From the IMG/VR virus record IMGVR_UViG_3300031553_000001, positions 13,755 through 77,754 of that record: a DNA stretch of 64,000 nt; one strand, given 5' to 3'. Below the pieces are notes generated by a model. That model ran no database searches, had not been told where the DNA came from, and saw only the letters and a program-made list of their open reading frames with translations. The position numbers and the translations under genes were made by a program. Below are positions 15,999 through 43,730 of this stretch, one piece after another (positions within the stretch are counted from its first letter, which is position 1; the number at the start of each line of letters is the position of its first letter). Source of the DNA: a virus.

Positions 15999-17135
15999 TT
16001 ATAAGATTTCCAGCGTTATCTTTATATTTTCTGGTAAACTTCCATCTACAGATAAGTCCGTTAGTAGCCACTTCTGGACATATAGCATCCCTATCATTGG
16101 CCCTTTGTCACCTCTCTCTATCTCTTTGTATCGCCTGGTGTTTTTCGTGTCTTTGTCTTTTGTGAAGTCTATGGTCTCTGGCATTATGTATAATCTCCTC
16201 TATTGTGGATGATACCATCTCCACGTATGTGTCCTGGGTAGTGGCTACCTCTCTTGAGATGCTTGGAGTATGACCAATGTATGCCGTCTCTGGAGTATTC
16301 TTGTACTCTACCAGATGCAGTATGTACTATCTTGGTGTGGTAGCTTTTTGGCTTGTAATTTATCGCTAGTGCATACCACAATATGAGGATGGTTATGATA
16401 GCTAGTATTATCAATATTAGTTTATCCATTGGAGTGTTGCCTCTTTATCTCTTCTCTCTCTTGTAGCCACTTGACTAGTGTCTTGTCCGCTTGCTGGTAT
16501 GAGTAGCCCTGGTCTTTGAGCGTATTGAATGCTTTGGTGTTGCTTACCCTGTGGTGGAGGAACTGCTGATGCGTGTTCTCTACCTTGGTTTTCCATCCCA
16601 TATGAGTTAATCCTTTCCAAACAGGCCTTGCTTTTATTATTCCTCTACTGCTACTGCCTCGTAGGTCCGCTCGAAGTCGGTTGGCCAATGCTGGTGTGCT
16701 AATAAGTGGCTGCTTCAAATATTCTGTGATAGTGGTTACCACTAGCGCCAGGAACAGTGCCGCTTTGATTGATCGAAATCCATATTGTCAATCTCCATAT
16801 CATAAGCTTTACAGAATGCCAGGAATTATACCTTAACCGGTCTGGACTGGCTGGGCCCAGACCGGCTTTCACGAAAGGAGGAAAGAGATGAACAGGCTCA
16901 CCGGTCGTCACGCGGCAACCCGCTACTATAGTAAACTTGAATACTATCAACTTTTGTCAATGAATATTGGAATCCGCTCATCTGGTTCCAGTACCGGCTC
17001 ACGGAATAGTTGCGGATAGTCCAGCATAATCTCACGCCGCCTACTAGGCCATTCCTCTGTTGTACTCATAACATACAATTCACCGTGTGGCACGCGCTTG
17101 GATTTTAGGAAGTATGTATACACAGATTTTACCAT
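15999..17135 (-). CDS. Group of small hypothetical ORFs (15999..16184, 16184..16429, 16422..16742, 16947..17135)
   Basis: Abutting or overlapping starts and stops; no recognisable motifs. Confidence 0.45.
16923..16939 (-). promoter_or_regulatory. Phage promoter-like motif CAAGTTTACTATAGTAG, copy 1
   Basis: Identical to the copies at 23158 and 34069. Confidence 0.7.
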
Positions 17136-17599
17136 GCCAATTCACCATCCAGCCTGTCAAGCTCAGCCTTCATGTCTTCGAGATTATGATCCAACAATGC
17201 TATCCTCATACGATCTGATATAGTAGAAAACTCTCCATACATCCAGATATACCATCTTGCCATGTGTGTAAACGCATTCAACGGCATCACTGCCACCTCT
17301 AGCTTGTCCTGGCCTTTTTTCTGTGTGCGCTTGAGAATAGCCACTGGGATTGTGTATCCCTCACTGAGCGTGATTTCATTGATGGCCGATATACTGGGTG
17401 TGGATCCCCAGCACTTGCACTGGATGGCAAATGGCTCCGTATTGTCAATGTCTCTGCCATAGCCTGCTTCATCCTCTTGGAATTCCAGGTGACGTTTGGC
17501 ATCCTTCCAACCTGCTTCACGCATCACCTTGGCTATGTGTCGCTCATACGCGGCACCCTTGGTCCTACTAGTCTTACTCAACCGGATACCTCCTATCAC
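17129..17599 (-). CDS. Holliday junction resolvase (Hjc-like PD-(D/E)XK)
   Basis: SRTKGAAYERHIA...DID...FAIQCK. Confidence 0.8.
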   Translation of the reverse strand: MIGGIRLSKTSRTKGAAYERHIAKVMREAGWKDAKRHLEFQEDEAGYGRDIDNTEPFAIQCKCWGSTPSISAINEITLSEGYTIPVAILKRTQKKGQDKLEVAVMPLNAFTHMARWYIWMYGEFSTISDRMRIALLDHNLEDMKAELDRLDGELAW

Positions 17600-18671
17600 A
17601 CGTTACTGGCTGTCTAATCACCCTAACTGTAAGTCCTAGCACTTTGGCAAAAGAATTGGCACATTTCAAAGCCAATCCTCTGATTTTAGATATTTCAGCT
17701 GCCGATACCGTCCAGTCAGTCAATGATGCCATATTCTTTGTAATAGCAAGTGCATCTTTCCGTGTTCTAGTATGAGTGCCAGGCGGTGATATGAGAAGCC
17801 CGCTGTGCATATGGATGACTTGCCAACCTTGACCTGCCTCCAAAATAGGTGCTTGTTCATCAGAAGACCAACTCACCACATTTGGTGTTTTAACGACGGC
17901 CAACCCAGGAACGATGGAGTATCCTCTCCAGTCAACCAATACCTCACGATTTGGACTGTACATTCTACTACGCAGCAATAGTTTCACATCGATCTGTTTC
18001 ATTGTATAGCTGGATACCTCTTATCGCACGTTACTGGATGTCTAAACAAAACGTGTTCCCAAGTAGACCTTGGTGGATTGACTGTACTTCGGGTGCGCAC
18101 CTTGCGCCCCATCTTTTTCACGCCAATCAGCTCTATAGCCTCCTTGATGGCCTCACATCTATCCCCAGATGATTCTATCAACACGTATTCCTCATCACAC
18201 GCGCCTTTGGGATTATACCATACGCCTGGTAATAGCTTATCACCCAGATTGTCAATAACCATCAACATTAGTGGGGATGTATTTATGCTAGGCATAATCC
18301 CTATCTCACTCAGATCACAGAGATTAACCCACAAGTACCTATCCACTAGTGTTCTCCAAGACATCCATATTGTCAATGATGCCTTCCCAAAGCGATTTAC
18401 TTATTGCCTCAAACATATCCTGAAATATGATCTCCAGCTTTTCATAATTTGGAAGGCCATTAGGCACAGCACCATACACATCTACATCCGCCAATAGCCT
18501 GCGCCGTTCTTTTATGAAATGATCTCCATGTATGTGTAGCGTAACGCTAGATTCGACCTCGATTTCCATAATATCATCCTGTCTATGTGTGCATCCACCA
18601 CCAAGCGATAAGTTCACCAGTAGCTTTGTTACAGATACGAACCAGCCGCCGCTTGAACAATGGTACTGCAA
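17574..18671 (-). CDS. Three hypothetical ORFs (17574..18002, 17999..18376, 18339..18671)
   Basis: Overlapping stops and starts; the first two share a C-terminal R-x-PVTCD-x-RYP. Confidence 0.55.
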
Positions 18672-18697
18672 TTATATTTATCAACTGGCAAAACAAC

Positions 18698-19945
18698 TTA
18701 TAGTTTAACAACTGGATGCCTCACTGTATTGTCAAACTCAGGACGCTCTAGCCTGGAAAATGATCCAGTATACTCCGCCCCTTGCTCTAGTAAACTTGAG
18801 AAGCCATTAGCCAACAGGATACGTCTTATCCCATCGTAATCCGCTTCATTCCACTGGGCATCTAGTATACTGTAATGCGCACCGCATCTATCTATTGATA
18901 AGTCCATACAATTATATGCGTCACAATATCTCTCTGATCCAAAGCTCAACAGGCTTTCCAGCTGACGTTTATTCAATATTCCAAAATTATCAATATCCAA
19001 GCATAGTTCGTCATAGTCATAGGATGGACTGACATTGATCCAAAAGTTGACCAGTTTGATAGCCGTCTTCTTGCCTATCCAACGCACGCCAGGGATGCCA
19101 TCCGACGAATCTCCAAACAGCACTTTGTATGGCAAATATGCCCCCCAATTTAAGCCCGTAAACCTCCTGAACGTATCTGCAGAGAATACCTTACCAGTAC
19201 TGGGGTTGATTACACACACGCGCAGGTCTACTGCTTGTAACAAATCCGCATCCGTGGTAACGATATATGGCCTGTCTTGAACCATCTTGGCAGCGTGATA
19301 CATCAAATCATCTGCCTCACAGTACTTGCGCCTTATTGTCAATATACCATGGATGGGTAGAATCATATCACACAGCTCATCCATTTGCCCGTATACGGTG
19401 CCCCAATCTACGGATTCGTCTTTAGTGCGGTGTGCTTTGTACGTTGGCACTAGCCGCTTGCGATATGGTGGAGTGCCCCCATCAAAACATACTATCACAG
19501 ACCTGGGATGCCACTTCTTTATCATTGTGTAGATCATTCTCATCACGCCAAAGAGTATGGATGTGTCTTTGCCGTGATGGGATAGCTGAACCGTATGTAG
19601 TGCTCTGTACGCTGTGTTGTTACCGTCTATTATCAATACCACCGCCCACCTCATCATCCCTGAATGTAACTCACGTATAAACTCACTATTGTTAATACAC
19701 ACACCAACAGAGTCAAAGGAAAACCTGACGATGATGTTACTATACAGTGTTTTGGAAATGTCTATGGCAACCTTTTCCGGATAGCTACCTAGCCCAACAC
19801 CAATTTCTCTGGCCAATCTCAGATTTTGACGTTTACGTGCTGCCTTGGCTCCTGGAAAGTAGAATTCATGCGCATATTGGTTTGCATTTATTGCATCTTT
19901 GATGTTTTTGACGTACTCAGCTGCCGATACATTATTCAGATCCAT
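18698..19945 (-). CDS. 5'-3' exonuclease / flap endonuclease (PolI N-terminal or T4 RNase H type) with an ~100-aa N-terminal extension or fused ORF
   Basis: LIIDGNN, CFDGG, YKAHR, EADD, TTDADLLQ, GDSSDGIPGV-x2-IGKKTA. Confidence 0.9.
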   Translation of the reverse strand: MDLNNVSAAEYVKNIKDAINANQYAHEFYFPGAKAARKRQNLRLAREIGVGLGSYPEKVAIDISKTLYSNIIVRFSFDSVGVCINNSEFIRELHSGMMRWAVVLIIDGNNTAYRALHTVQLSHHGKDTSILFGVMRMIYTMIKKWHPRSVIVCFDGGTPPYRKRLVPTYKAHRTKDESVDWGTVYGQMDELCDMILPIHGILTIRRKYCEADDLMYHAAKMVQDRPYIVTTDADLLQAVDLRVCVINPSTGKVFSADTFRRFTGLNWGAYLPYKVLFGDSSDGIPGVRWIGKKTAIKLVNFWINVSPSYDYDELCLDIDNFGILNKRQLESLLSFGSERYCDAYNCMDLSIDRCGAHYSILDAQWNEADYDGIRRILLANGFSSLLEQGAEYTGSFSRLERPEFDNTVRHPVVKL

Positions 19946-22030
19946 ATATTTTGTCTCTTAACATACGTTCATATTGCCGTTCCAAGTCATCCTCTACATT
20001 GCCACGAAAGTTGGCATACAAAACCATCACCAACACGATGCTGCCAAGGATTAGAGGCACGGCGCACACTACTGCCAGAGATGATGGGCCATCGCCACCA
20101 GCTGATTTGGCACTCAGATCTTGGGTGACCTGCGAACCAACTCCAGCAATCAAGCCGACAACGATGGCCGCCAAGAAGAAAGCTATCAACAACAGTTTCA
20201 ATTCAGAAGTCATCTCAAAACTCCTTTCTGCACCCTATTTACCCTGCTTGTCCATCAATTTTGGTTTTGGCGTCAACCAAACTTCGGCCGTTGCCGTCAT
20301 CCCCGCTTTCCGAGTGACTACCATCACCGCTGTCCAACGTGCCTGTCGTGTTTGCGCTTCCACCTGTCGTGTCCTCTTGACCGCTCGACTTGTTGCATTT
20401 CTGCGTACCGCATTTACCGTCGAGGCACTCGCATCTAACTCCGTACGCACCTCCTGCCAGATGACACTACCCACTCGAAGTAGCCAAAAGAGAACCACCG
20501 CAAGTAGTACACAACCCGCAAAAGTCACCCAACGTTTGATGCTTTTCAGGTCTCGATCTCGATCTTCAGTCACGTCAAACCTCCTCTACACTAACGTCTA
20601 GTAACCCAGCTCCAAACACTTCTTAGTTGCCACCTCTCGATACACGCCATCAACCATGTCAGCGCACTCTTCATACGTACCTATGTCCTGTTCAACGCAA
20701 ACATAGATGGCCGCTGCCGCGTCTGGCCCCTGGTAGAGAACCTCCATGGCCGCTCGCACACAAGCATCCATGTTCTTGTCCGTTGCCGAACCAGAACCAA
20801 CGCCAAAATCCAAATCGGGTGTAGGCCCACTAGTTGGCAAGACCCAAGGAGTAGCGGTGCGGTTGACTTTATGGACTGATGTCAGGAGTACCCTCTTCGT
20901 CGCTGTCTTTTCAGCATAACTGTCTCCACCATCCCGCCCAACTGACGCACAGCACACTAATAGAAGAAACAATGCTAATGAAACTGCCCCGATCAGAACC
21001 TTCATCTTGCTACTCACAACAAACCTCCTAGGTAGTTGAGCCCACTAAGCACACTGCAACCGCCCAGCAGCACGAAAAGGATGAGTGAGATAAGCATCAC
21101 GGTGCCCATGAACGACACCCACCCACGAATACAATGCACCTGTTTGTACAGGTCCTTCAGTTGCTCCAACTGCCCGTGTATACTCGCAACCTCGTCCAGC
21201 AGAAGCTGTTCCGTTGTCAATAGTGGCTTCTCTTCATCTGCCTCGGCCGCCTTCATTACATACTCTGCCATCTTGTTACTCATTGCCATACCTCCTATAG
21301 AAACGAACAACACACTAATAGAAGAAACAATGCTAATGAAACTGCCCCGATCAGAACCTTCGTCTTGCTTTTCACCTCAAAACCCTCCGTCCCCATAGCT
21401 CCAGAATTCCAAAGGGAATAGCTGCCAACAAACCTACCACTATCCCTAGCCAAGGAAAATCATCAAACCCGCTGATTAGCCCACCAAGTAGGGCAAGCAC
21501 TATACTGATTATCAAAGCCAAACTGACTGCCCCACTACTCATTACATCCCTTCCCGCACGTCTGACCGTGCCTTGATAATGCAAACCACGCCCACGCCGA
21601 TGATTATCAATATCACTACTGGCAGAAAGATAACCTCAAACATCTCAACCTCCAAAATTCGTGGATGCGTAAATCCAAATCCAAATAGCCGCTGCGATTA
21701 TCAAGGCCAAAATACCTAGAAATGAGTTATCCCGTCGTGGCTCAAGTGGCGGCAAAAACGGATACATATCACCCAAATCGCGCCTTCCCATATTGTCAAC
21801 CTCCAATTACGCTCAACAGCCTTGGATTATCAATACAAGCATCAACACTAATCCTATTCCAAACAGTACAGGCAATCCTATCTCACAAAAGGCTCTTTTC
21901 ATAATCAACCTCCATATACACCTAGACATAAGAACACCAGTATGAAAACCGCTACCGCACAACCTACCGCCAAAGCCAAACCGCCAGAACTATCCACATC
22001 CAACCCACGCAGATTGTCAATCCAGTTCAT
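19932..22030 (-). CDS. Cluster of about ten small membrane or lipoprotein ORFs (19932..20213, 20235..20573, 20598..21017, 21014..21313, 21295..21375, 21372..21542, 21542..21643, 21645..21791, 21813..21902, 21905..22030)
   Basis: Each has one or two hydrophobic helices and most have a GGAGG-type RBS; several are below the track cutoff and were translated by hand. Confidence 0.65.
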
Positions 22031-22032
22031 AT

Positions 22033-23129: not shown

Positions 23130-23157
23130 CTATATCCTCCATTAGATTGTCAATCCG

Positions 23158-23174
23158 CTACTATAGTAAACTTG
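23158..23174 (-). promoter_or_regulatory. Promoter-like motif copy 2, upstream of the Cas7-like gene
   Basis: CAAGTTTACTATAGTAG, then ATTGACAAT, then GGAGG and ATG. Confidence 0.7.
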
Positions 23175-23697
23175 CTGCCAAAGCAATATGGCCACGCCAC
23201 TCTTTTTCCAGGTTTGGCCTACGCAAGACATAGGCTGGATGCCAAGTGGCCGCGTATATTGTCCCATCAAACTCATATTCCCACAGCGTTCCAGCCCACT
23301 TAGCTTCATTTCCCAAAACTGCCACAAAAGCCGTCTTACCCAACAGCAATACCATTTCTGGATCCAATCGCTCGATGTCCCTGCGCAGGAATGTGGCACA
23401 TAGCCTAGCCGCTTTGGCAGGCAACTTATTGTCAATTGGATGACACCTCACCACATTGATGTAGGCCGCCATCTCATCTATTCCCAAATCACCTAACGCA
23501 CTGACTAGCAGTTCGCCAGATCTGCCTATCGGCTTGAAGGTTGGACCAACCTTCTCCACATCTCTTCAAGGTGCTTCTTGGACCACTAGGATGCGCGGAT
23601 TGGGATTGCCTATCACGCCCTGGAATGGATGCGCTTTGTCCCGAAACAGGCCACACTCTTGACATATTGGATTGTCAATGCCTGGTTGATCGGCCAC
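23161..23697 (-). pseudogene. Family-4-like uracil-DNA glycosylase interrupted by one in-frame TGA (23568-23566)
   Basis: GTG start with GGAG RBS gives CQECGL...ILVVQEAP*RD...GRSGELL...NVVRCHP...LLLGKTA...TWHPAYVLR. Confidence 0.8.
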
Positions 23698-23698
23698 T

Positions 23699-24586
23699 TT
23701 ATGCTCCAATATTCCAAAATACCACTGGCTGCTCAAGATGCTCTATATTGTCAATCAACCACAGCCACGCCTTGGCATCATAATACTCATTACATGGAAA
23801 CGGAATATCCGCATTGTCTACTCCGTCTTTGTAGGCATAATTTTCATCTATGAATCGCAAATTGTCGCCTGGAATCACACCAGCCATCTGAGTGATATAT
23901 TTTCTGGCTGCATCTTTGCTTCTGCTATAACCCATATGAGCTAGGATAACCGCTGATTGTTCCCAAGCATTATACAAGCCGCGCACTACACCAGCGCATA
24001 TAGTACCTGAGCTAATAGACACTACCCAAGTACCCTTAGCGTATATATCATCCGGTGTATACGTTCGTGCTTCCATTGCAGTAGCTACTACTGTCTCTTG
24101 CAAACATAACCCATTAGGCATCATCACCCCACGGTCATCAGTCATTTGAGCCAAGACCTTTTTGGCTTGATGATACAAGACACAACTACGTCCTGCCTGC
24201 AATGGAACGATTTGAGCACCTAGATTAGCTGCAACCTGCTGATGCATGCGTATTTTATGGTCAGGAAACCAACCATCGCTAGGCGTGCCTGGCTCCAAAT
24301 ACTCATCCTTGTATACCGGATAGAATACGATGCACTTCAGACCTAGATGATGACACAGATATGCTACTCCTCTGCCAGCTTTGGAGTGATACGTATCCAA
24401 TACACCCATAGTTGTATCATGATTGAATTTTGTCAAATATGATACAACTCCACGAATCTTGGAGAAGTGTGGGCCACTTGGATCAGGACAACACAAATCC
24501 TCGCGCTTAACCCAAACAGGCCAAGTGTCGTCAATATCATACTGTTCCCAAGGCGTATTGTCAATCAACAGACTGTTAGTGTCCAT
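23699..24586 (-). CDS. PLP-dependent enzyme (fold type II); probable hypermodification decarboxylase
   Basis: VWVKRED...FSKIRG, SISSGTICAG, PFPCNEYYDAKAW; clustered with the rSAM and amino acid:DNA transferase genes. Confidence 0.75.
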   Translation of the reverse strand: MDTNSLLIDNTPWEQYDIDDTWPVWVKREDLCCPDPSGPHFSKIRGVVSYLTKFNHDTTMGVLDTYHSKAGRGVAYLCHHLGLKCIVFYPVYKDEYLEPGTPSDGWFPDHKIRMHQQVAANLGAQIVPLQAGRSCVLYHQAKKVLAQMTDDRGVMMPNGLCLQETVVATAMEARTYTPDDIYAKGTWVVSISSGTICAGVVRGLYNAWEQSAVILAHMGYSRSKDAARKYITQMAGVIPGDNLRFIDENYAYKDGVDNADIPFPCNEYYDAKAWLWLIDNIEHLEQPVVFWNIGA

Positions 24587-28082: not shown

Positions 28083-28880
28083 TCACTCATCAGGATACAC
28101 CGGCATGAACTTTATCAATTCCTCAGCCAAGTCACCCCAGCCACTCAGACCTTTGGTAACGTGAATGGTGTCGTTGCCCATCGGGTAAAATCCGTAACAA
28201 TGGGCTTTATATTTACACAAAATCGTTTCCACTTCTTGGATGTTCACTGGTCTGTCATCCCAGGGAGGAGCAAGTTTATTGTCAAACTCACCCACCATCC
28301 TGTCACAAGTGACATGTAACTGATCCATCGTTATGGGATAATGCTTGTCGCCATAATCGATCCAGGCTGCGCCTTGGACAGGATCTTTATAGATTCCTAT
28401 CTCACTGTCCGTAAAATCCACTGGATAGCTGAGAACCCGCTCCGCCATATCAGCTATCTTCCACCCCATCCAAGGCCCAAAACCTTTGTATTTCACCACA
28501 TTGTCAAAAACCTCCTTAAATCTGTAATGAGCGCACATATCATCTACTATCCGCTCTGGCTCACCAGCATCTTCCAATCCATTTACCAAATCAAGCGCAG
28601 ATTTGCCATAGAAATACCTGCGTTCCATTCCTCTGGGCCATTTCTCCGCTAAACCCAATCGCATAGATTTATAGAAATGCGATGATTCAGCTATGCGCGC
28701 AGCCACACCACAAGAATAATAACACCAATAAGCCAACAAAAATCTTTCAAACATTTTTCCATGTAACACGCCAGCCATCTCAGCATCCACCAGCATTACG
28801 TATACTGGATCCAGATCGCCTGTGTCAAGAAGATCATTACCAAAATCCTGATAGGACATATCTATTTTTGGCTGTCTCAT
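28083..28880 (-). CDS. Amino acid:DNA transferase (aGPT-Pplase/ADDT, HhH-glycosylase fold)
   Basis: DLDPVY, LLAYWCYY, WPRGMERR, FGPWMGWKIADM-x-ERV, APP...R-x2-NIQEVETILCKYK. Confidence 0.8.
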   Translation of the reverse strand: MRQPKIDMSYQDFGNDLLDTGDLDPVYVMLVDAEMAGVLHGKMFERFLLAYWCYYSCGVAARIAESSHFYKSMRLGLAEKWPRGMERRYFYGKSALDLVNGLEDAGEPERIVDDMCAHYRFKEVFDNVVKYKGFGPWMGWKIADMAERVLSYPVDFTDSEIGIYKDPVQGAAWIDYGDKHYPITMDQLHVTCDRMVGEFDNKLAPPWDDRPVNIQEVETILCKYKAHCYGFYPMGNDTIHVTKGLSGWGDLAEELIKFMPVYPDE

Positions 28881-30040
28881 GATTCCTCACAAGCATGTAT
28901 GATTCTAGCATCAGCAATTTCAAAATACTCTTCTTCAATCTCAATACCAATGAAATCTCGATCAGTATGAATACAAGCTATACCTGTTGTGCCACTACCC
29001 ATAAATGGATCGAGAACGGTGCCGCCGGTGGGCGTCTTGGTTAGCTTGCAAAGGTATTCCATCAAGGCAATAGGTTTGACTGTCGGATGATAGTTCTGAT
29101 GGGCACTTGGATGATACTCACTCCATCCTACCTTCCCTGTATCAGGATCAGCTCTGCGGATTAATTTACTCGTATTCTTCTCAAATCCTTGTCTCTTTTC
29201 CATCCCATCCAGCCCCTCGTTGCGTTCATTTTCGTTGGCCTTGGGACAGTAGAAGTATCGAGCCTTGGCATCGCCAACCTGCTCATCCAATAGCGCGCCA
29301 GCCTCCTCATCGAGGATCAGGTTGGCGGGCCAGCGCCCCAATCCGGCATCCACAAATTCAATATGTTTTCCCACCTCATTTGCCCCACCACTACCGGAGA
29401 AACTAAATGAACCGTGTAGCTTCTGCAGCTTGTCTTTCGTTGGTATCCTCCCTCCGTCGATCCACAGCCCAGCCACGCCCCACTTGAGCGCATTATGTGC
29501 AAACGTGCCGTCACGCGGCTTCATTGCCAGGATTATAGGCTCCCAGGCAGGCTTTAGGCCAGTGCCCCAGCCATCCCAGAGTTTGGCGGCTTCGGTGGTG
29601 GGATGATACTTGTAACCATAATCAGAACGAAACTTCTTCTCCCTAGGCTCATAATCCCCACCTGCATAATTTGCGCCTTGCGATTGTATGCCCAATTTCC
29701 CCGCCGCCTTGTCGATGGCCTTGCTGATATTATGAGATTTCGGAAAGCCCGAACCATACAACCACATCAGACAATCACGGATCACCCAGCCCGCATCTTC
29801 TATCGCACACATTAGTCGATGGTGGGTGCGCGTGCCCCCAAATGCTAGCAGCATCGCCCCTGGCTTGGCTACTCTCAATGCAGCTTTCCAAAATACTACT
29901 CCAGGCACGCCGTGATCCCACTCCCTGCCCATAAATTTGAGGCCATACGGTGGATCCGTGATGACCGTGTCCGCACTATTCTCATCCAACATAGCCATCA
30001 CGTCCAAACAATCACCACAATACAGCGTTGCTTGAGTCAT
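28877..30040 (-). CDS. DNA N6-adenine/N4-cytosine methyltransferase (beta class)
   Basis: TDPPY, HPTVKP, LDPFMGSGTTG. Confidence 0.93.
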   Translation of the reverse strand: MTQATLYCGDCLDVMAMLDENSADTVITDPPYGLKFMGREWDHGVPGVVFWKAALRVAKPGAMLLAFGGTRTHHRLMCAIEDAGWVIRDCLMWLYGSGFPKSHNISKAIDKAAGKLGIQSQGANYAGGDYEPREKKFRSDYGYKYHPTTEAAKLWDGWGTGLKPAWEPIILAMKPRDGTFAHNALKWGVAGLWIDGGRIPTKDKLQKLHGSFSFSGSGGANEVGKHIEFVDAGLGRWPANLILDEEAGALLDEQVGDAKARYFYCPKANENERNEGLDGMEKRQGFEKNTSKLIRRADPDTGKVGWSEYHPSAHQNYHPTVKPIALMEYLCKLTKTPTGGTVLDPFMGSGTTGIACIHTDRDFIGIEIEEEYFEIADARIIHACEES

Positions 30041-30888
30041 ACATCCTCACAAGCGTGTATGATTCTGGCATCTGCGATCTCATAATACTCTTTATCAATC
30101 TCTATGCCAATGAAATTGCAGTCATTTTGCAATGCCGCCAAACCCATAGTCCCAGATCCACTGAATGGATCGAGAACTGTACCGCCTGGTGGACAAATGT
30201 ACCGTGTCCACCAATCAGCGAGCTTGAGTGGCGTACCAGCACCATGACCGTGTGCACCTGCACTAGATCGGCTATTAGAATTTGCAAATGGAAGCAGATT
30301 GTAAGGAGTCACTCCACCACGCCTCTGAGCAGCAGCCATCATACTAGACCGTTTTACACTGTGACCGGATGGGCTAGTAATATGTGTTGCCATTTCACCA
30401 GACACCCTAGCCCTGGCATAATGTAATTTGCTTGCTTCTGCCTCAGTCCATAATACGGCATCTTGGTTCCTACAACATTTGGAATTCCCTGCCCACACAC
30501 ACGCCTTGAGGCTCGGCCGCATGAGACCATGAGATGGTGCGCCTCCCAATGGCAACGTGGTAATATTCCACCACCATACATCCTGTACCATATTCCACTC
30601 ACGACAAACCCAGGCCATAAACTCCCACAACCAGCCACGTAGTTGTCCTACATGTTTAGAATTTGGCTGCAAGATAAATACTGCACTACCAGTCGGCTTG
30701 AGTATACGCCGTATCTCAGGTATTACACCCTCAACAATAAGCGCCCACCACTGATCCGCAGTCCAGTAGCCATAAGACCGTTTGATGTAGGGATAAGGCG
30801 GATCAGTGATCACCACATCCACGCTCTCTGCATCTAATAATGGCAAAATGTCTAGACAGTCACCACAATACAGCGTTGCTTGAGTCAC
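30037..30888 (-). CDS. Second DNA N6-adenine/N4-cytosine methyltransferase (beta class)
   Basis: TDPPY, LDPFSGSGT; termini near-identical to the neighbouring gene. Confidence 0.9.
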   Translation of the reverse strand: MTQATLYCGDCLDILPLLDAESVDVVITDPPYPYIKRSYGYWTADQWWALIVEGVIPEIRRILKPTGSAVFILQPNSKHVGQLRGWLWEFMAWVCREWNMVQDVWWWNITTLPLGGAPSHGLMRPSLKACVWAGNSKCCRNQDAVLWTEAEASKLHYARARVSGEMATHITSPSGHSVKRSSMMAAAQRRGGVTPYNLLPFANSNSRSSAGAHGHGAGTPLKLADWWTRYICPPGGTVLDPFSGSGTMGLAALQNDCNFIGIEIDKEYYEIADARIIHACEDV

Positions 30889-34035: not shown

Positions 34036-34068
34036 TGTGCATATCCTCCCTATCAGATTATCAATCCA

Positions 34069-34085
34069 CTACTATAGTAAACTTG
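34069..34085 (-). promoter_or_regulatory. Promoter-like motif copy 4, upstream of the SSB gene
   Basis: CAAGTTTACTATAGTAG, then ATTGATAAT, then GGGAGG RBS. Confidence 0.7.
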
Positions 34086-34904: not shown

Positions 34905-37505
34905 TCAGAATGGTATATGTACTTCACCAGCCAAATTTAGCTTTTCCATAGCTCCATAATGGCTGCCAACGTCTACATCCGCGTTCAACGGACAGATTAG
35001 CCAACTCATGTCGATGTTTGGCATCCACTCAGCACCATACTTCACCACATTCTCCATTACATCCACGCACAGCCCAGCTACATCTAGCAATTCACCAGGA
35101 TACACATCAAACACTATAGAGTCATGCACAGTGTTCACTATCTTAGTATGCCAACCCCGCTCCAGCATCAGATTGTCAATGATTACCAGGGCCATCACCG
35201 TAATCAAACCGGCTGCGCCCTGCACAGGCGTGTTGGCTGCCTCACGCTCAGCATGCTTGCGCCTGGATTGCTCTGGTGCATCTATATCCGATAATGGCCG
35301 CCTGTTTCCAAATGGCGTTTCAATGTAGCCATTCTTACGCGCAAAGCGCACACATTCCTTCTGGAATTCCAGCACCTCTGGGAATGCTGTGTAGTACTGT
35401 TCTTTTATGAGCTTTCCCTCCTTCAATGGAATGTCATATAGCCGCTCTAGCGTATACTCTGAACCACCATAGAGCATAGTCCAATTGGTCCATTTATATC
35501 TATACCTCTCTGGTTTTGTGATCTGGTCATAGGGCTTACCGCTCACCATAGCCCCAACCATTGTATGGAAATCCCTGCCACTACGATGGATTTCCAACAT
35601 AGCCTCACATCTGGCTAGACTAGCAAACACCCGCAGTTCCATACCGCTGTAATCCACAGACATCACATAGCCGTCATTCACATCCAACTCCAGATTGTCA
35701 AACCACCTCCAGTCTGTTGGGATACCTGGAACATACTCGTATTCCTCACCATTTTTGTTAGACCACGTATGGGTAAACATATTCTTGATCGGCAAACATT
35801 CCATCATCGTGCCTGGCTCCTTCTCTGGCACTGGAATGTTCTGTAGATTGGGATTACTAGATGACAGCCTGCCCGTCACCACAGTATGTTGACCAAACGA
35901 TGACCTTATACGTCCATCTGAAGAGGATGCGTATACACCAGTGGCTGTAGGTGTTATGTATGTACCCAACATCTTTTGGTACATTCCATACATTATCAAA
36001 TCCGCCACCAGTGGGCACTTATCCTTGTAGATTTCCAAGAATTCGCGTTTGGTGGACGGATTTCCAGAATCCGAAAAACCTTGCGGTTTGAGATTATACG
36101 AGTACTGAAGTGCATCCTTGCGCCACTCAGCAGATTTGGCCCACTTGCAATATTTACCACCGTATAGCACCCAAGCTTTCTGCTGCCAGCTTCCAGGATT
36201 GAATTTGAATTTCTTGGAAGCTTTATGTCGGCATTCCACATAGCCTTTGACCATTGGATTATTGTCAATAGCCTCCACAGTGTCCATCATCTCAGCAGTA
36301 TACACGCGCCTGTACCGCTCTGCCATATAGTAATCCACTGCCAAGCCATTGCACTGCATCCGCGCAATAGTGTTTGATGCAGGCACAAATAGCTCATCAT
36401 ACAAGACTTGCTGCTTGGAAGTCAGTTTACTATACAACAATTTCTCTAGCTGAAATGTGGCTGCCGCGTCCTTGGCAGCGTATGGCAACAGGACATCTAG
36501 TGGAACCTGAGAATAGTTGATCTTGTCACTCTTGGCTACGTAACTCTTGAGCTCTTTGTCGTACTCGAACATCCCCAGATAGTACCCTGCCAGCCGTTTC
36601 AAACCATGTAAGCCAGTCTTGGATTCATATAGAAATGACGCCAACATCGAATCGCCTTGGGCATCAAACTCAACGTCCAACAAGGCTTTGCATTGCATCT
36701 GGTCGAATTTGATGTTGTGACCAATGATGTGAGGATGAGATTCTAGAACATTACACATCATATCCAAGGCACCGTCGGATAAAGGTGCCAAATCACCTGG
36801 ATGATCCACAGGCACTGCCCAGGCTGTATCTGCTGTGGCAAATGACATAACCAACAAGCGCTGATTATTGTCAAAAGCATCCAATGAATTCACTTCTGTA
36901 TCAAACGCTATGACAGGGGATGCCATCAAGGCCACACACATATGATATATTCCTGGCTTGGAATATACGAATTCGTAGTCATATTCTTGGTCTGCTGATG
37001 GAGCAACTCCACTACTCCAAGCGTTCCAAGCTTCCTCTATTCCTTGCAACCACGTATTTGTGGCTGATTGGTTGCGCAGAATGTAAGCCGGATGGAACAG
37101 TGGCACGTATATTACCCCGTCACGCTCCACTACCACCCCATTCCAGGAAGTGATGCCAGATTCTCCAAGTACCGCCTTCAATGGCGTGTTGCCAAACAGA
37201 AGTACCATCTTCGTATTGGATTTGATGGGCAACGACTGGTAGCAGCATTTAATGTATTTAGGCTTTATCTTGTTGCCTGGGGGATGACACCTGACTATGT
37301 TGGTATATGTAATAGGTGGAAAGCCAAACGACTCTAACGCAGTGCGCAGTAGCTTACCAGACCTACCCACAAATGGCTTGCCCTGTTTATCCTCTTCGTC
37401 ACCTGGCGCCTCCCCAACTGCCAGGATTGTATAGTCACCGCCATCGTCCGGCACTGGACCATTGGACAGCTCCAACAGACCGCACTTCTTGCAATCTGGT
37501 TCCAT
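34905..37505 (-). CDS. polA: Family A DNA polymerase with N-terminal UDG-like domain and 3'-5' exonuclease
   Basis: GEAPG/HPAY (UDG); FDTE, HNIKFD, YAAKD (exonuclease); TGRLSSSNPNLQNIP, DYSGMELR, K-x2-N-x3-LYG, VHDS (polymerase). Confidence 0.95.
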   Translation of the reverse strand: MEPDCKKCGLLELSNGPVPDDGGDYTILAVGEAPGDEEDKQGKPFVGRSGKLLRTALESFGFPPITYTNIVRCHPPGNKIKPKYIKCCYQSLPIKSNTKMVLLFGNTPLKAVLGESGITSWNGVVVERDGVIYVPLFHPAYILRNQSATNTWLQGIEEAWNAWSSGVAPSADQEYDYEFVYSKPGIYHMCVALMASPVIAFDTEVNSLDAFDNNQRLLVMSFATADTAWAVPVDHPGDLAPLSDGALDMMCNVLESHPHIIGHNIKFDQMQCKALLDVEFDAQGDSMLASFLYESKTGLHGLKRLAGYYLGMFEYDKELKSYVAKSDKINYSQVPLDVLLPYAAKDAAATFQLEKLLYSKLTSKQQVLYDELFVPASNTIARMQCNGLAVDYYMAERYRRVYTAEMMDTVEAIDNNPMVKGYVECRHKASKKFKFNPGSWQQKAWVLYGGKYCKWAKSAEWRKDALQYSYNLKPQGFSDSGNPSTKREFLEIYKDKCPLVADLIMYGMYQKMLGTYITPTATGVYASSSDGRIRSSFGQHTVVTGRLSSSNPNLQNIPVPEKEPGTMMECLPIKNMFTHTWSNKNGEEYEYVPGIPTDWRWFDNLELDVNDGYVMSVDYSGMELRVFASLARCEAMLEIHRSGRDFHTMVGAMVSGKPYDQITKPERYRYKWTNWTMLYGGSEYTLERLYDIPLKEGKLIKEQYYTAFPEVLEFQKECVRFARKNGYIETPFGNRRPLSDIDAPEQSRRKHAEREAANTPVQGAAGLITVMALVIIDNLMLERGWHTKIVNTVHDSIVFDVYPGELLDVAGLCVDVMENVVKYGAEWMPNIDMSWLICPLNADVDVGSHYGAMEKLNLAGEVHIPF

Positions 37506-38501: not shown

Positions 38502-38687
38502 TTCAAATCTCCTTTATCGGCCTTTTCAAGGTTAATGTGCTCTATTCCTATGCTTCTTCTTTCGGAAATAAGTGCCTGAAACAACAAGCCGGTTTGATCC
38601 ATCAACTCCACTGCCTGTTGTTTCAGACTCTTCGCCTCCACCAGCAATGCAGTTAGCTCGGCATACAAAGTCTGTTGCTTTGTCATT

Positions 38688-39821: not shown

Positions 39822-40294
39822 CGCAAGAACTCCATTATCTCAGCCACATCTATGCCTGTAACATTGGACCATACCTCTTCCACCCATCTCTCCACATCCT
39901 CCGGTCTCTCAGCAGCTATCCAATCCAGCCACATCAGACAATACAACGATATGTCTACCAACAGATCCACAAACGCCAAATGTATCTCATCAGTAGCCAA
40001 CCTGTGACCAGACATTACCACTTTGGCAATGCCATCAAGCTTCTCAAGTCTATCAGCCAACTGGCCATACCGGTCAGACTTCCTCATTACATTGTGATAT
40101 ACTCCAGCCTCACCACGCTTGGCCCAGCTACGTCCATACTGAGAATCCTTATGCATGTGATATACCAACAGCAACGAAGCCAGTTTCACCATCGGAATAG
40201 GGTATGGATCGTCACTTGCATCCGCACACATAGTCATGGCAAACTGCGGCATGTCATCAGACACTTGCGCAATCATTTCCTCAAGGTTAATCAA
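39818..40294 (-). CDS. Nucleotide-modification-associated helical domain (DUF1599/Nmad1-like)
   Basis: K-x3-YG-x-SW-x2-RG-x2-G...RK-x-DR...D-x3-D-x3-Y. Confidence 0.65.
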   Translation of the reverse strand: MINLEEMIAQVSDDMPQFAMTMCADASDDPYPIPMVKLASLLLVYHMHKDSQYGRSWAKRGEAGVYHNVMRKSDRYGQLADRLEKLDGIAKVVMSGHRLATDEIHLAFVDLLVDISLYCLMWLDWIAAERPEDVERWVEEVWSNVTGIDVAEIMEFLR

Positions 40295-41846
40295 TTTTCA
40301 CTCCATTATCCACGTATACATACTGATTGCATCCTTTATGTGGCCCAGTTGGCACCTTGGTCATGCCAAGCTTGTATTTGGGCAAATCTGGCACCTCCCA
40401 CATTGGAACATAACTTAAATCAGCCTTGGTTGTTGCATTCATCACATCCCACACAAGCGCACTATATTTATCCATCAAGACGCCAGCATACCGTATCATA
40501 TATCGTGGTATGTCATTTATGCCACGATGATAGTAAAACCAAGGCAACCACTCGCCATATAGAATAGAATTCAACATATCACAGTCCACCCCAACCGCTT
40601 CCATCGAATAGATGCGTTGTTTTGGATACCTGCAAGGCAGACCTTTTATTACATCACATCCACCTGTGCGATGCACGCACACGGGACAGTTGCCAAGCCC
40701 TATCACATATCTATTATCAAAGTGTTTCAGTAAACGCATTACGTACCAGCTGGTAATAGAATCTGTGCAAGACCCACGCATATATGTGTTGCGGTTACCG
40801 GAATACTCAATCGCCCAAGCCATATCCACGGACACAGTAATGATTGCCAGCGTATCCAAGGATGGCCTAATGGCATCAAACCTAGGTGCGCACCCTGGGC
40901 AACCGCCGTTCATACCCTTGCACGTACCACACGCCGTGGCCTGTTCCCACTCCGTCAACAACGGTACATCGCCACGTTTCAGAACGTGCATATGAACCAG
41001 CAGACTTAGAATATTTCCAGTACTAGTCTTGTAGCCCACATTCCAATCATACACTCTGCAATTGGTTATATCAGATCCAACTTTGTCGCTAACGTCTGCC
41101 CATGGCCCCCACTCGGATGGTTCCAATATCTCAGATCTGGATGTAATCTCTATATCAGGCACTAAGGCTGCCAATTCATTCCTGGCTCGTACATTGTTCT
41201 CATACTCTATTCCCACCACAGCCGCCCACACTTTGACTTCTCTGTTGGACAACCGTACCACATCCATATATGACTCAAGATTGCCAACAGCTGATAGGAA
41301 TTCATACAACATATCATCCCTGGTGACACTATCCACATCAATCCAGCGCACATACGTTTGGTTATAGCTCTCGGCATGTCGAACTATGCTTTCACATTTA
41401 TGTGTGATATTGTCAACATTAATTCCACGTGGCTTGGATGACTTCCTATTCCTTATCCGTCTTAGACACCCGTCCACCGATGCCTTCAATATCACAAACA
41501 TCGGTTTGATACGATGTGATACCTCCAACTCCAATAGGAAATTATAGAATGTGGATTTGATGGTGGAGATCATCATACCTTCAAACAGCACATCACAATC
41601 TGGATGATTATCAATAGCATCCATGATAGCTAACTTGACATTGGCCACATTACTACCACCAGGCAACTTATCACAACCATTACTGGTTCGCGTGCTCAAA
41701 TCATAGTGCCCCACCAACACCCACCCAAAATCGTGCAGCACCGTATTCCACTGCTCCACTTCTATATCACAACTAGCCGCTACCATCTGCAGGGGAATAG
41801 TAGACTTTCCAGATCCATTGCTGCCTTTGATTTGAACCACTTTCAT
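40287..41846 (-). CDS. P-loop 5hmU-DNA-kinase-like domain fused to a DUF2284-like Cys-rich metal-binding domain
   Basis: IKGSNGSGKST...GHY...GCD...LFEG; C-terminal CGTC...CPGCAP...GNCPVC...CRYP...SMEAVGVD. Confidence 0.7.
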   Translation of the reverse strand: MKVVQIKGSNGSGKSTIPLQMVAASCDIEVEQWNTVLHDFGWVLVGHYDLSTRTSNGCDKLPGGSNVANVKLAIMDAIDNHPDCDVLFEGMMISTIKSTFYNFLLELEVSHRIKPMFVILKASVDGCLRRIRNRKSSKPRGINVDNITHKCESIVRHAESYNQTYVRWIDVDSVTRDDMLYEFLSAVGNLESYMDVVRLSNREVKVWAAVVGIEYENNVRARNELAALVPDIEITSRSEILEPSEWGPWADVSDKVGSDITNCRVYDWNVGYKTSTGNILSLLVHMHVLKRGDVPLLTEWEQATACGTCKGMNGGCPGCAPRFDAIRPSLDTLAIITVSVDMAWAIEYSGNRNTYMRGSCTDSITSWYVMRLLKHFDNRYVIGLGNCPVCVHRTGGCDVIKGLPCRYPKQRIYSMEAVGVDCDMLNSILYGEWLPWFYYHRGINDIPRYMIRYAGVLMDKYSALVWDVMNATTKADLSYVPMWEVPDLPKYKLGMTKVPTGPHKGCNQYVYVDNGVKID

Positions 41847-41868
41847 TTTGAATTTCCCACTAAAACCT

Positions 41869-42519
41869 CTAAGTACACGCTGTTGGATACCACAATGATA
41901 TATCCTCTACAAACATGTGGATTATCAAATCTGCCTGTGATCTCCATCCAAAGTCATCAAAGGGTAGTTCAATCCAATCCTTCGGATCCAAATGCATAGC
42001 GGCAGCACGTATTAAGCGTGTGGACGATTCATACTCCAACTTATGTGGAGTCCAATACTTTTCAGCATATATACGATGACTCAAAACAGCACGCTTACGT
42101 AATGCCTGCTCCATATATTCGGCTGTGGTAGTGATTATTATCATAAACAACCCACCACCCATTTCCAATGGAACGTGCTTGATATGATGAAATATGCTTC
42201 CCCAGAATCTCATACCTTCCGCTATCCAAAGCGTTTCTCTGTCACATACCATATATCGTATTAGTTCTTGTTTACCAGGCAATGTCCTGTATACATCATA
42301 TAAAGCAGGAAATTCTGGAATATTGTCATAGTTTGGTGTCAACATATCACCAAACACTTTACGAATGCCAGGAATATCCAATGATTCCAAATAGGTGGTC
42401 TTACCCGTACAATGAGTGCCATAGATGCCAATCAACATAGAATAACCCCAATAGAAATGAAAAATGATGGGGTAAAGATGGTGCCTGGGATGGTGGATTG
42501 TCATTTCATCCGGTGGCAA
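41869..42519 (-). CDS. Second P-loop kinase-like protein; likely start ATG at 42438
   Basis: IGIYGTHCTGKTT...IAEG...LRKR. Confidence 0.6.
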   Translation of the reverse strand: MPPDEMTIHHPRHHLYPIIFHFYWGYSMLIGIYGTHCTGKTTYLESLDIPGIRKVFGDMLTPNYDNIPEFPALYDVYRTLPGKQELIRYMVCDRETLWIAEGMRFWGSIFHHIKHVPLEMGGGLFMIIITTTAEYMEQALRKRAVLSHRIYAEKYWTPHKLEYESSTRLIRAAAMHLDPKDWIELPFDDFGWRSQADLIIHMFVEDISLWYPTACT

Positions 42520-42556
42520 CTCATCTTTACCCCATACATATTCAGCTCATACAGCA

Positions 42557-43285
42557 CTACTCCGTTGGCCCGTGGATCAGCGCGTCGCGTGCTGCCTTAG
42601 ACTTGTACTCTGGCTTCCACTTCGTGATTCCCTTGCTCTTCTGATATGCCAGGGTCAAGCGCATGTTGTTTACCAATTCATTGTCATGTTCCTCCCAAGT
42701 CACCTTGGCATCCTTGGCCTCCGCCACCTTCTCCTCGAAGGTCAGTGTCGGCCAGTACTCATGAAATTCTATATATTCCTTGGTCTGAGCTACAGCCTCC
42801 ATCTCTGCAGTACTCATCAAACGTTGCGGCTTTGCTGGAACCACTACAACTTCTTCTGACACGCTATCCGCATCAGCATAGGCCACCACATATGCGTGAC
42901 CTTTCTTGCGGATTGTCAATGCCCGACCTGCTAGAAGCGCCTGGTCAACCAGCCCAAACAAGTCCGTGAACTCCAAGACTGAAGGCAACTCCACCGCACC
43001 AGGTTTTTCCTCAGTGACTTCCTCAGTCATAGCAGGCTTCCTTGTTCGAACACGTTTGACAGGCAACGCATCTGGAGCCACTTTCTTGCGCCGCTGCCGT
43101 CTGACAGGCTTTTCCTCAACAACTTCTGGTTCCTCAACAACTTCTGGTTCCTCAACAACTTCTGGTTCCTCAATATCAATGCTTTCCTGCTCAACCTCAG
43201 GAACCGTGGTGGGCTTACGCCGCGTCACTTTACGCACTCTTCGCTTCGTCATTTGATTCTCCTTGTTTTGTTGTGGCATCCTCAC
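42557..43285 (-). CDS. Hypothetical protein with alternating basic/acidic low-complexity N-terminus
   Basis: EEPEVV x3 encoded by an 18-bp tandem repeat near 43113-43171. Confidence 0.6.
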   Translation of the reverse strand: MRMPQQNKENQMTKRRVRKVTRRKPTTVPEVEQESIDIEEPEVVEEPEVVEEPEVVEEKPVRRQRRKKVAPDALPVKRVRTRKPAMTEEVTEEKPGAVELPSVLEFTDLFGLVDQALLAGRALTIRKKGHAYVVAYADADSVSEEVVVVPAKPQRLMSTAEMEAVAQTKEYIEFHEYWPTLTFEEKVAEAKDAKVTWEEHDNELVNNMRLTLAYQKSKGITKWKPEYKSKAARDALIHGPTE

Positions 43286-43730
43286 ATTTCATCCAATGGA
43301 TGCACATTTTACAGTCGTTGTCGTTAGCGTCATACAACAAACCGAAACACGATGGCCTGTTTGCATCCCGCACTGCTACACATTGCTTACGCAATGCGCA
43401 GCGCTTACAGGCTGGATCTGCATCATCGGCCAACCCATAACACTTTGGTAACTTCTCATCTACTTCATCACTTTCCTCCTGCTCATCTTGAGGATTATCA
43501 ACGCCACTTAGCAGTTCATTCCCATCCTCATCTATAAAATCAGCTGCCACCATCAAATCCCATAGCTCTTCGCTGACCTCATCCTCTGGCAAACCGCCAC
43601 GCAGATTGTCCAACAGCATATCACACAGATCGTACACGTGCGTGTCCAGTTTGGCGGATATCCCCAGCTCTTCAGCTATGTCCAGTAGAACGCGCTTCCC
43701 AAAACGTTTGCCGATTTCACGGTTTGTCAT
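43230..43730 (-). CDS. Acidic protein with two C-(Y/F)-G...CxxC-x5-C repeats
   Basis: Start revised to MTNREI (GGAGG RBS); duplicated Cys motif. Confidence 0.6.
   Translation of the reverse strand: MTNREIGKRFGKRVLLDIAEELGISAKLDTHVYDLCDMLLDNLRGGLPEDEVSEELWDLMVAADFIDEDGNELLSGVDNPQDEQEESDEVDEKLPKCYGLADDADPACKRCALRKQCVAVRDANRPSCFGLLYDANDNDCKMCIHWMKCEDATTKQGESNDEAKSA

Follow-up and report, generated by a model that had tools for sequence, protein, structure and literature searches.

A co-oriented TGAYAAT word in the genome of an uncultured phage and its dialects among related phages

Introduction

Oriented octamers that are kept at high copy number by selection are known mainly from bacterial chromosomes, as with Chi and the FtsK orienting polar sequences (KOPS), and from phages that borrow the Chi site of their host. 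In Chi-rich phages no octamer is more frequent than Chi: there is 1 site per 1.9 kb, 20 of 23 sites are co-oriented, their distribution is uneven, and sites are gained and lost with the shuffling of modules (PMC12315714); as an empirical rule, the lambdoid phages that are rich in Chi have no recombination module of their own (PMC12315714). In the literature searched, selected octamer enrichment in phages is described for host Chi only. The subject of the present analysis is another such octamer, TTGAYAAT, found in a stretch of 64,000 nucleotides (hereafter the window) that comprises bases 13755-77754 of the complete 77,754-bp virus record IMGVR_UViG_3300031553_000001. The record has a 127-bp terminal overlap and looks like a circular assembly.

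Copy number and strand of the word

The sequence ATTRTCAA occurs 62 times on the plus strand of the window and once on the minus strand (21573-21580), the expectation from dinucleotide shuffling being 7.3 ± 2.4 copies for both strands summed (maximum 13), or about 4 per strand. Since all substantial open reading frames (ORFs) of the window lie on the minus strand, the coding-strand form of the word is TTGAYAAT, and over the whole 77.75-kb genome the coding strand has 71 copies and the opposite strand a single one. Its two versions, TTGACAAT (C-variant; 37 copies against 2.1 expected) and TTGATAAT (T-variant; 25 against 1.7), have the two highest z-scores among octamers, and single-base variants of TTGAYAAT are at or near background except for C/T at position 5. 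The true core is the 7-mer TGAYAAT, with a ratio of 92:3 between the coding and the other strand of the whole genome; the base before it is T or A (WTGAYAAT, 87:1) and the base after it C or A. The variant ATGAYAAT contributes 12 copies, 12/12 of them on the coding strand, and the extended form ATTGACAAT occurs 24 times.

An earlier reading of the same letters by eye (the original prediction) had put the octamer at about 59 co-oriented copies, about 51 of them between 16.4 and 43.5 kb and about 8 between 52.5 and 63.1 kb, with a single reverse copy near 21573 and none in 1-16406 or 43502-52505. The count gives 52 (16407-43501) and 10 (52506-63060) copies, so that the excess is even larger than claimed, and it agrees on the sole reverse copy (21573-21580) and on both empty stretches. 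All example coordinates of that reading are correct within 1 base, and the near-palindromic extension that it had described is found in the 24 occurrences given above.

Reading frames, coding nulls and compactness

When the 62 copies are placed in their reading frames, 33 encode x-Asp-Asn, 19 encode Leu-(Thr/Ile)-(Ile/Met), and the remaining 10 lie between genes or at their boundaries; the third sense frame is unused because TGAYAAT would put a stop codon (TGA) there. The word therefore lies, as had been proposed, inside genes in different frames, using both stop-free frames as well as intergenic DNA. Coding nulls were counted only for copies wholly within the shuffled codons. Under synonymous shuffling, with the protein and the per-gene codon usage fixed, the 52 in-gene copies compare with 14.6 ± 3.3 (maximum 25 in 300 shuffles), and under codon permutation within genes with 4.1 ± 2.1. 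The enrichment thus persists under the codon- and dipeptide-type nulls that the original prediction had named as its check. Taken together, the two nulls indicate that the choice of amino acids (about 3.6-fold) and, on top of it, that of synonymous codons (3.6-fold again) are bent toward the word. A peptide or codon-usage artefact is rejected by these figures and by the use of both open frames and intergenic DNA. A mutational or repair drive of the very short patch (VSP) type was also rejected, since one-step neighbours are not depleted and the word-free blocks described below would be left unexplained.

No partner element was detected within ±45 nt of the word, either here or in any related genome, and in all genomes compared the sequence information is limited to a single 8-10 bp block. 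Resemblances to IHF, FNR/FixK, Fur half-site and DnaA-box sequences were dismissed on the flanks, which hold no second half and no obligatory partner. The word was equally rejected as a sigma-70 promoter, a -35 element or a bipartite half-site, there being no -10 partner and most copies being intragenic; a TANNNT box with a spacer of 15-19 lies downstream of 4/71 sites, compared with 4.9 ± 2.2 at random positions.

W-TGAYAAT-C is very probably a selected DNA-level word that is read by some protein. Because the sites are compact, partner-less and frame-independent and turn over between relatives, it is DNA that the protein would read, at many sites each of small benefit. From the ratio of 92:3 we infer that this reader acts in a strand-specific way in the studied phage.

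Dialects and polarity in related phages

About 40 relatives were collected from alignment-based scans, and eight records were analysed in full (G001-G003 and G005-G009, the studied phage being G000); the closest relatives (PolA 55-67% identical, contigs of 77-82 kb) were left out, only short fragments of those having been seen. The family consists of uncultured phages with genomes of 75-82 kb, and the PolA of the relatives is about 40% identical to that of the studied phage. There was no DNA match to the studied phage among GenBank phages, protein matches being distant only, and no relative was found in species-representative bacterial genomes. In all eight relatives nearly all genes lie on one strand. 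Unbiased k-mer scans gave the following dialect words, with counts as sense / antisense:

G006, 77.5 kb, complete: TGAHAAT, 104 / 22
G002, 74 kb, complete: TGAYAAT, 43 / 71
G009, 57 kb, fragment: TGAWAAT, 17 / 46
G003, 31 kb, fragment: TGATAAT, 18 / 37
G005, 75.7 kb: TGGAAAT, 73 / 73
G008, 70.9 kb: TGGAAAT, 67 / 40
G001, 42.5 kb, fragment: TGGAAAT, 34 / 37
G007, 78.8 kb, complete: no comparable word

The dialect words have the shared form W-TGRNAAT-C and a 15- to 25-fold excess in the relatives, and all enriched dialects carry a purine at core position 3 with an invariant G before it. In G005, for example, the octamer TTGGAAAT is present in 43 and 45 copies in the two orientations, against 1 and 0 for the backwards control. 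No comparable word enrichment was seen in 71 unrelated phage contigs (≥ 8 kb; maximum z 3.6), and no hyper-abundant word in Pseudomonas phage M6. The k-mer statistics of G007 are dominated by a large region of collagen-like or triplet-repeat genes (L150, ~26-36 kb; GCTACTGGAGC-type repeats).

Neither dialect nor polarity is stable on the PolA tree, where their states interleave, with L119 (33:3) and L117 (2:18) inside one clade. Across the family, polarity runs from sense-only through random to mostly antisense: sense bias is also found in L119, L111 and G006, a mostly antisense orientation in G002, G003, G009, L117 and L093, and a ratio of about 1:1 in G001 and G005. Word positions within PolA are mostly not common to relatives. 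As the sites behave as independent units that turn over between relatives, it is their density that matters and not their exact positions. In genomes that use both strands, orientations follow one another at random (runs tests, |z| < 1.7), and a paired or convergent site architecture was rejected on this ground and because the copies of G001 are not inverted-repeat pairs.

Part of the polarity pattern is accounted for by coding constraint. Sense TGAYAAT has a stop in one frame and antisense TGAYAAT has none, so that an antisense excess of about 3:2 is predicted, and the values in G002, G003 and G009 are near it; TGGAAAT is stop-free either way and is found at about 1:1. The strongly polarised genomes, including the studied one, need more than this. 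G000 and G006, both strongly sense-polar and complete, lack a 722-aa UvrD-like zinc-ribbon helicase and three neighbouring genes, which are present in G001, G002, G005, G007, G008 and G009; this contrast is confounded with phylogeny. As a further observation, the TGGAAAT copies on each strand of G001 are spaced more evenly than expected by chance (coefficient of variation (CV) 0.63-0.67, n=34-37; L087-L089), and spacing is close to Poisson in G000, G005 and G006 (CV 0.9-1.2).

Two readings that bear on polarity were considered; here and below each reading was judged singly, and the likelihoods given in words are not meant to sum to 1. Polarity might have been shaped, on top of another cause of abundance, by restriction enzymes of the host whose cleavage occurs only between sites in head-to-head orientation (Type III, Type ISP). 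Such enzymes typically recognise seven-base asymmetric words with one degenerate position, the co-oriented EcoP15I sites of T7 are a precedent, and near-pure polarity with an arbitrary direction across lineages would be explained. We nevertheless regard this as quite improbable, for the 20-fold enrichment stays unexplained and three reverse core copies persist in the studied genome, where one inverted pair would suffice for cutting. It also seems improbable that a phage nickase introduces site-specific nicks into one strand at the word, in the manner of T5 or Pseudomonas phage tf. T5 and tf-like phages do carry nicks in a single strand at short consensus sequences, and an asymmetric word confined to one strand in the studied phage, with an arbitrary choice of strand among relatives, would suit them; however, no nickase was identified, relatives with a ratio of 73:73 would be nicked on both strands, and nicking too leaves the 20-fold enrichment without explanation.

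Distribution along the genome

The copies are distributed in blocks, which are given here with single copies of note and with the genes of the word-free head block:

16407..43501, minus strand: dense block with 52 TTGAYAAT (34 TTGACAAT, 17-18 TTGATAAT), about 1 per 0.5 kb
52506..63060, minus strand: sparse block with 10 copies (7 TTGATAAT, 3 TTGACAAT), about 1 per 1.1 kb
1..16406, minus strand: word-free block (no 8-mer) with head and accessory genes, extending about 1 kb past the window start
43502..52505, minus strand: word-free block (no 8-mer) with the primase gene, a sigma-like gene of the extracytoplasmic function (ECF) kind and mostly genome-unique genes
8746-10329, minus strand: terminase, within the word-free head block
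6146-8215, minus strand: portal, within the word-free head block
2234-3742, minus strand: probable capsid, within the word-free head block
21573..21580, plus strand: the only non-coding-strand TTGAYAAT, inside the densest cluster
21792..21799, minus strand: copy between Shine-Dalgarno sequence and start codon, one of 6 such copies, the others being at 16784, 25164, 28500, 37900 and, less clearly, 35992
42137..42687, minus strand: four ATGAYAAT, at 42137, 42322, 42497 and 42680
5855, 12458, 34889, 39339, 51166, 60332, 60872 and 61741, minus strand: further ATGAYAAT on the coding strand

The dense block corresponds to the module for DNA replication, recombination and thymidine hypermodification. 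It includes the genes for a FEN-type exonuclease, a uracil-DNA glycosylase (UDG)-like protein, a pyridoxal phosphate (PLP) enzyme, an intein-bearing radical-SAM enzyme, ADDT, two N6/N4 methyltransferases, a UvsX/RecA-like protein, a radical-SAM/SPASM enzyme, SSB, PolA with an N-terminal UDG4 domain, an Mre11/SbcD-like nuclease and a 5-hydroxymethyldeoxyuridine (5-hmdU) DNA kinase fused to DUF2284. The N-terminal family-4 UDG domain of PolA is family-wide (34905-37505, minus strand, in the studied phage), and a free-standing 132-aa UDG-like paralogue is also encoded (23161-23559, minus strand). Spacing within the block is near-exponential (median 314 bp, CV 0.91), and the densest cluster, with 6 copies per 330 bp, lies over small hydrophobic ORFs. 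The sparse block carries the genes for DnaB and a UvsW-like helicase and large tail or tape-measure-like genes. If the genome-wide rate applied, the 17.5-kb head block would be empty with a probability of about 1e-7. The C-variant outnumbers the T-variant in the dense block (34 vs 17) and the reverse holds elsewhere (5 vs 15; Fisher p = 0.003, whole genome), a split that could reflect age or strength classes of sites.

Promoter-like elements and candidate DNA-binding proteins

A second repeat, distinct from the TGAYAAT word, is the promoter-like element of the family, which consists of CAAGTTTAG followed by a TAWAAT-like hexamer and in the studied phage reads CAAGTTTAC-TATAGT. It is strictly sense-oriented, lies upstream of genes and is present in 5-16 copies per genome. 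Its copies in the studied genome and the neighbouring sigma-like gene are:

23158-23173, minus strand: promoter-like element AAGTTTACTATAGTAG, with TTGACAAT 4 nt downstream (23146-23153)
34069-34084, minus strand: promoter-like element, with TTGATAAT 4 nt downstream (34057-34064)
16923..16938, minus strand: promoter-like element at the downstream edge of the dense block
18782-18797, minus strand: further copy of the promoter-like element
44324-44339, minus strand: promoter-like element at the upstream edge of the dense block, directly before the sigma-like gene
43717-44310, minus strand: ECF-like sigma gene encoding a conserved 197-aa protein (atlas lead)

The 197-aa protein has an atlas feature score of 0.97 to viral Sigma70_r2 clusters and TM values of 0.51-0.59 to sigma-70 family models, and, as far as such models can indicate, this ECF-type sigma-like protein is likely to read the family promoter element. 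All five promoter-like copies of the studied genome lie within or at the edges of the word-dense block. The presence of two copies of the word just past a promoter motif, noted in the original prediction, holds, the distance being 4 nt in both; these two cases of a promoter followed by the word were seen in the studied genome only. In G002, at oriented position ~32.05 kb, a candidate tRNA-like sequence is found directly downstream of a promoter-like element.

The coincidence of the dense block with a stretch bounded by sigma-type promoters, together with the roughly six copies between Shine-Dalgarno sequence and start codon and the sense orientation of nearly all copies in the studied genome, G006, L119 and L111, would suit a signal at the RNA level, such as the site of a nuclease or RNA-binding protein in transcripts of the replication module that times their expression. 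Most copies, on the other hand, lie deep in genes, and in the relatives listed above as mostly antisense (G002, G003, G009, L117, L093) or about 1:1 (G001, G005) nearly all genes are nonetheless on one strand. Since the word is not oriented in a constant way towards transcription across the family, a function in RNA cannot account for the family-wide trait; we rate such a signal as very unlikely, and for the studied genome alone it is a minor possibility.

Binding sites on double-stranded DNA would sit more easily with random orientation in relatives, provided that no polar effect is involved. The word might then provide multi-copy sites for a phage DNA-binding protein, either stoperator-like, with a monomeric protein that blocks elongation in a polar manner, or of a nucleoid or organising kind, site and protein co-evolving. 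An asymmetric, compact 8-10 bp site with no partner would be appropriate, and so would a density that follows modules, high over replication genes and zero over early and head genes, and the two copies right after promoters. In the studied genome the copies point with transcription, as stoperators do (PMC6550527), and the dialects vary among relatives in the way of cluster A subclusters. Several observations speak against it: 52/62 copies are intragenic and stoperators are mostly intergenic; there are 3 times more sites than stoperators, each far shorter (vs 13 bp); in relatives the sites run against transcription or point either way at random; a search of the proteins scanned, which was not exhaustive, found no repressor or integrase; and no accessory gene tracks the dialects, except for a weak lead, a protein of about 200 aa encoded between the UvsW-like helicase and DnaB. 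On balance this reading appears rather unlikely.

Word-free stretches and recent acquisition

In the original prediction, absence of the word had been taken as the mark of recently acquired DNA. This applies to the two methyltransferase genes, which are genome-unique and have 0 copies in 2 kb, and to the intein; for the head module it is unclear. The longest word-free gap of the dense block (2515 bp) spans both methyltransferase genes, from which the word had correctly been said to be absent, and the intein sits in the third-longest gap. Within the dense block, unique genes have 1.32 copies per kb, compared with 2.34 for shared genes (p = 0.056). The head block has 0.29 per kb and consists mostly of family-shared genes, and in G002, G003, G005 and G006, too, the word is scarce near the terminase gene. 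A foreign origin of the word-free blocks by composition was not supported, since GC content, skews and tetranucleotides are alike (r = 0.83-0.93), and the blocks contain no other dialect words. It is possible that the head module was swapped in from a word-less relative, such relatives being represented by G007 and L211. The word could serve as a practical marker of the residence time of DNA segments in the mosaic genomes of this phage family.

Thymidine hypermodification and the question of a host reader

The dense block of the studied phage includes the genes of a predicted hypermodification pathway and two methyltransferase genes:

40287..41846, minus strand: 5-hmdU DNA kinase fused to a DUF2284 metal-binding domain (M6-type pathway)
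28083-28880, minus strand: ADDT (M6-type pathway)
25238-27745, minus strand: intein-bearing radical-SAM enzyme (M6-type pathway)
23699-24586, minus strand: PLP enzyme (M6-type pathway)
28877..30888, minus strand: two N6/N4 DNA methyltransferase genes, found in the studied genome only

As predicted from sequence, the kinase, ADDT, radical-SAM and PLP enzymes form a complete M6-type thymidine hypermodification set, the likeness being to the chemistry described for phage M6 (PMC8989533). In other family members, domains of the 5-hydroxymethyluracil (hmU) kinase occur together with another set of downstream enzymes: a second ADDT and a protein that resembles inositol-phosphate synthase. In the TGGAAAT relatives the module (G001, L088:7120-11221) comprises the kinase with an HMUDK helical-domain protein, a second ADDT and a myo-inositol-1-phosphate-synthase-like enzyme, a gene content that suggests another, undescribed thymidine adduct. 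The view that hypermodification is confined to TGAYAAT phages was found to be wrong, as hmU-kinase pathways are present in all family members.

This last point, together with the thymine-rich nature of the word on both strands, would be in keeping with the word as a target or exemption site of thymidine hypermodification or of a methyltransferase. Hypermodification has been described as sequence-specific (PMC8989533, PMC5889632), and among the complete genomes M6-type chemistry accompanies the TGAYAAT dialect. The M6 kinase, however, phosphorylates about 23% of hmU, a context so loose that an 8-mer is implausible as its site, and M6 itself is without the word. Pathway type and word are not one-to-one either: G007 has the pathway without the word, and G005 the word without either transferase. 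The methyltransferases are found in the studied genome only and the word is family-wide, and the status of a target would not explain enrichment. A modification target is therefore held to be a poor candidate, and hypermodification is treated here as context, given M6 without the word and the mismatch between pathway and word.

As context it bears on whether the reader could belong to the host. If the word were a host-specified Chi-like signal, a helicase-nuclease of the RecBCD/AddAB type would read it on one strand and switch from degradation to recombination, by which phage DNA would be protected and recombined, and the dialects would correspond to different hosts. The statistics are those of Chi-rich phages, with the word as top octamer, 1-2 copies per kb and a co-orientation of 71:1; word-free stretches coincide with genome-unique genes; the dialects are patchy on the PolA tree, as host switches would produce; and a random order of both orientations in relatives would suit protection against breaks anywhere. 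Yet the family has UvsX-like, UvsW-like, Mre11-like, SSB and FEN proteins of its own, in contrast to Chi-rich phages, which have no recombination module. Known Chi sequences are G-rich and unrelated to the word, and no relative of the phage was found in species-representative bacterial genomes. Because the word is T-rich on both strands, in DNA predicted to be hypermodified at thymidines, which should disturb a host enzyme, a host reader is less likely, and we consider a Chi-like signal unlikely overall.

A possible signal for phage replication

The original prediction had listed several functions for the word. The excess is real, strand-specific and frame-independent. Chi-like sites and repressor or nucleoid sites remain from that list, and an RNA signal and a modification target are disfavoured. 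To these we add a tentative proposal, that the word is a signal for the replication and recombination machinery of the phage itself, which would act on single-stranded DNA; in its most concrete form the word would be an extended site at which the primase initiates.

The template site of DnaG-type primases is a triplet whose 3' base is cryptic, and their primers begin with a purine (PMC2910064), and the T7 primase site 5'-GTC-3' is extended to 5'-(G/T)(G/T)GTC-3' (PMC2910064). The phage encodes a DnaG-type zinc-finger primase, DnaB, a UvsW-like helicase, a UvsX-like recombinase, SSB, FEN and an Mre11-like nuclease, and the primase gene is located as follows:

50580..51530, minus strand: DnaG-type primase with CHC2 zinc finger, 316 aa, the candidate reader if the word is a priming site

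On this proposal, the T4-like replication and recombination machinery of the phage would act at the word on single-stranded DNA, and its DnaG-type primase would use the word as an extended initiation site. The complement of the word is 5'-ATT-N-Y-C-A-3', and that of the C-variant contains 5'-TTGTC-3', which would be a T7-like extended site with a cryptic C; the template forms offered to the primase would be 5'-ATTGTCAA-3' or 5'-ATTATCAA-3', and R-N-A-A-T of the coding strand would be the purine-started pentamer primer. A highly specific primase would compel the genome to supply sites at about the spacing of Okazaki fragments (0.5-1 kb), and polarity would mark the usual lagging-strand template. 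The observed density of 1-2 sites per kb is compatible with that spacing, the more even spacing on each strand of G001 and the invariant G before a purine in all enriched dialects are in its favour, and restriction to one family with variation in dialect is as expected of a phage-encoded reader.

A number of results weigh against this proposal. Neither the primase nor other core proteins covary with dialect, primase similarity following phylogeny (7 genomes, low power), and dialect-discriminating columns are few and conservative (4 in DnaB and 1 in the primase, outside the zinc finger). The complete relative G007 has the same replication genes and no strong word, and 34% of the studied genome (blocks of 17.5 kb and 9 kb) is without a copy. 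Known DnaG primases need just 3-5 nt, and no genome is known to show an excess of priming sites. The close relatives L119 and L117 have opposite polarity and other relatives a random one, their replication genes being homologous; skews at four-fold sites do not flip with polarity, which, if anything, speaks against the direction of replication as the reference for polarity. The lagging-strand template would moreover fall on the template strand of transcription, which implies head-on replication and transcription, and the close-to-Poisson spacing in G000, G005 and G006 is a further point of the same kind.

The slot between the UvsW-like helicase and DnaB (53383-54003, minus strand; also in relatives) always holds a very fast-evolving protein of about 170-206 aa, which is 30% identical between two TGGAAAT phages and unrecognisable across dialect groups. 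It may be a helicase loader or specificity factor, and to judge by these comparisons its tracking of the TGGAAAT phages would be a weak lead.

With the replication signal as the preferred reading, and a Chi-like host signal and multi-copy protein-binding sites as its chief competitors, the wider picture, put forward as a possibility, is that of a hypermodifying phage family with a genome-wide 'address word' of its own, in the TGRNAAT dialects, which is read by a phage-encoded replication or recombination enzyme, for example a long-site primase; site and reader would co-evolve, and polarity would record the mode in which the DNA is copied.

Comparison with known systems

The literature searched describes neither this word nor its dialects, nor a polarity that varies inside one family. 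Among described systems, Chi arrays (LLS, P1; Zheng et al. 2025, PMC12315714; Bobay et al. 2013, PMC3784561) resemble it in several respects: both are selected, asymmetric, most-frequent octamers, present at about 1 per 1-2 kb, mostly co-oriented, intragenic, uneven, and gained or lost with modules. They differ in that the sequence of the word is unrelated to Chi, the phage family has recombination genes, the polarity in relatives is random or reversed, and the DNA is predicted to be hypermodified. The stoperators of cluster A mycobacteriophages (L5 gp71-type; PMC6550527, PMC9283540) are likewise asymmetric, occur in tens of copies and have a consensus that varies among relatives, but they are 13 bp long, number about 25-35, are mostly intergenic and serve a monomeric repressor in temperate phages, whereas the word has 7-8 bp, about 90 copies that are mostly intragenic, and a polarity relative to genes that is not conserved in the family. 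In sequence form the word recalls the T7-type primase site (PMC2910064), with its strand specificity, the 5'-TTGTC-3' of its complement and an invariant base followed by a purine and a short fixed stretch, and the phage encodes a primase of this type; known primase sites are of 3-5 nt and need no enrichment, as opposed to the 7-9 nt specified by the word, and the primase does not covary with dialect.

KOPS, the SpoIIIE recognition sequences (SRS), the highly iterated palindrome HIP1 and DNA uptake sequences are likewise skewed and abundant octamers with one degenerate position that occur in any frame. KOPS and SRS switch strand at origin and terminus, or else such words are host-wide, in contrast to the phage word, which is family-bound and has no switch in any genome. 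In sequence, TGAYAAT is unlike CCTNACG, GTGTCGA, TGTAATGT and ATATT.

What sets the present case apart is that a phage family with replication and recombination genes of its own, and with thymidines that are predicted to be altered, keeps about 90-150 copies of a word of its own. Sister dialects and variable polarity amount to a natural experiment, and a comparison of relatives should expose both the reader and the meaning of polarity. If the reader is a host enzyme, the word is a host-linked signature for uncultured phages; if it is a phage enzyme, viral genomes would be organised on a principle not described before, and a sequence-specific DNA tool might come of it. An address word encoded by the phage, if true, would be the first virus-encoded counterpart of the architecture words of the Chi and KOPS type.

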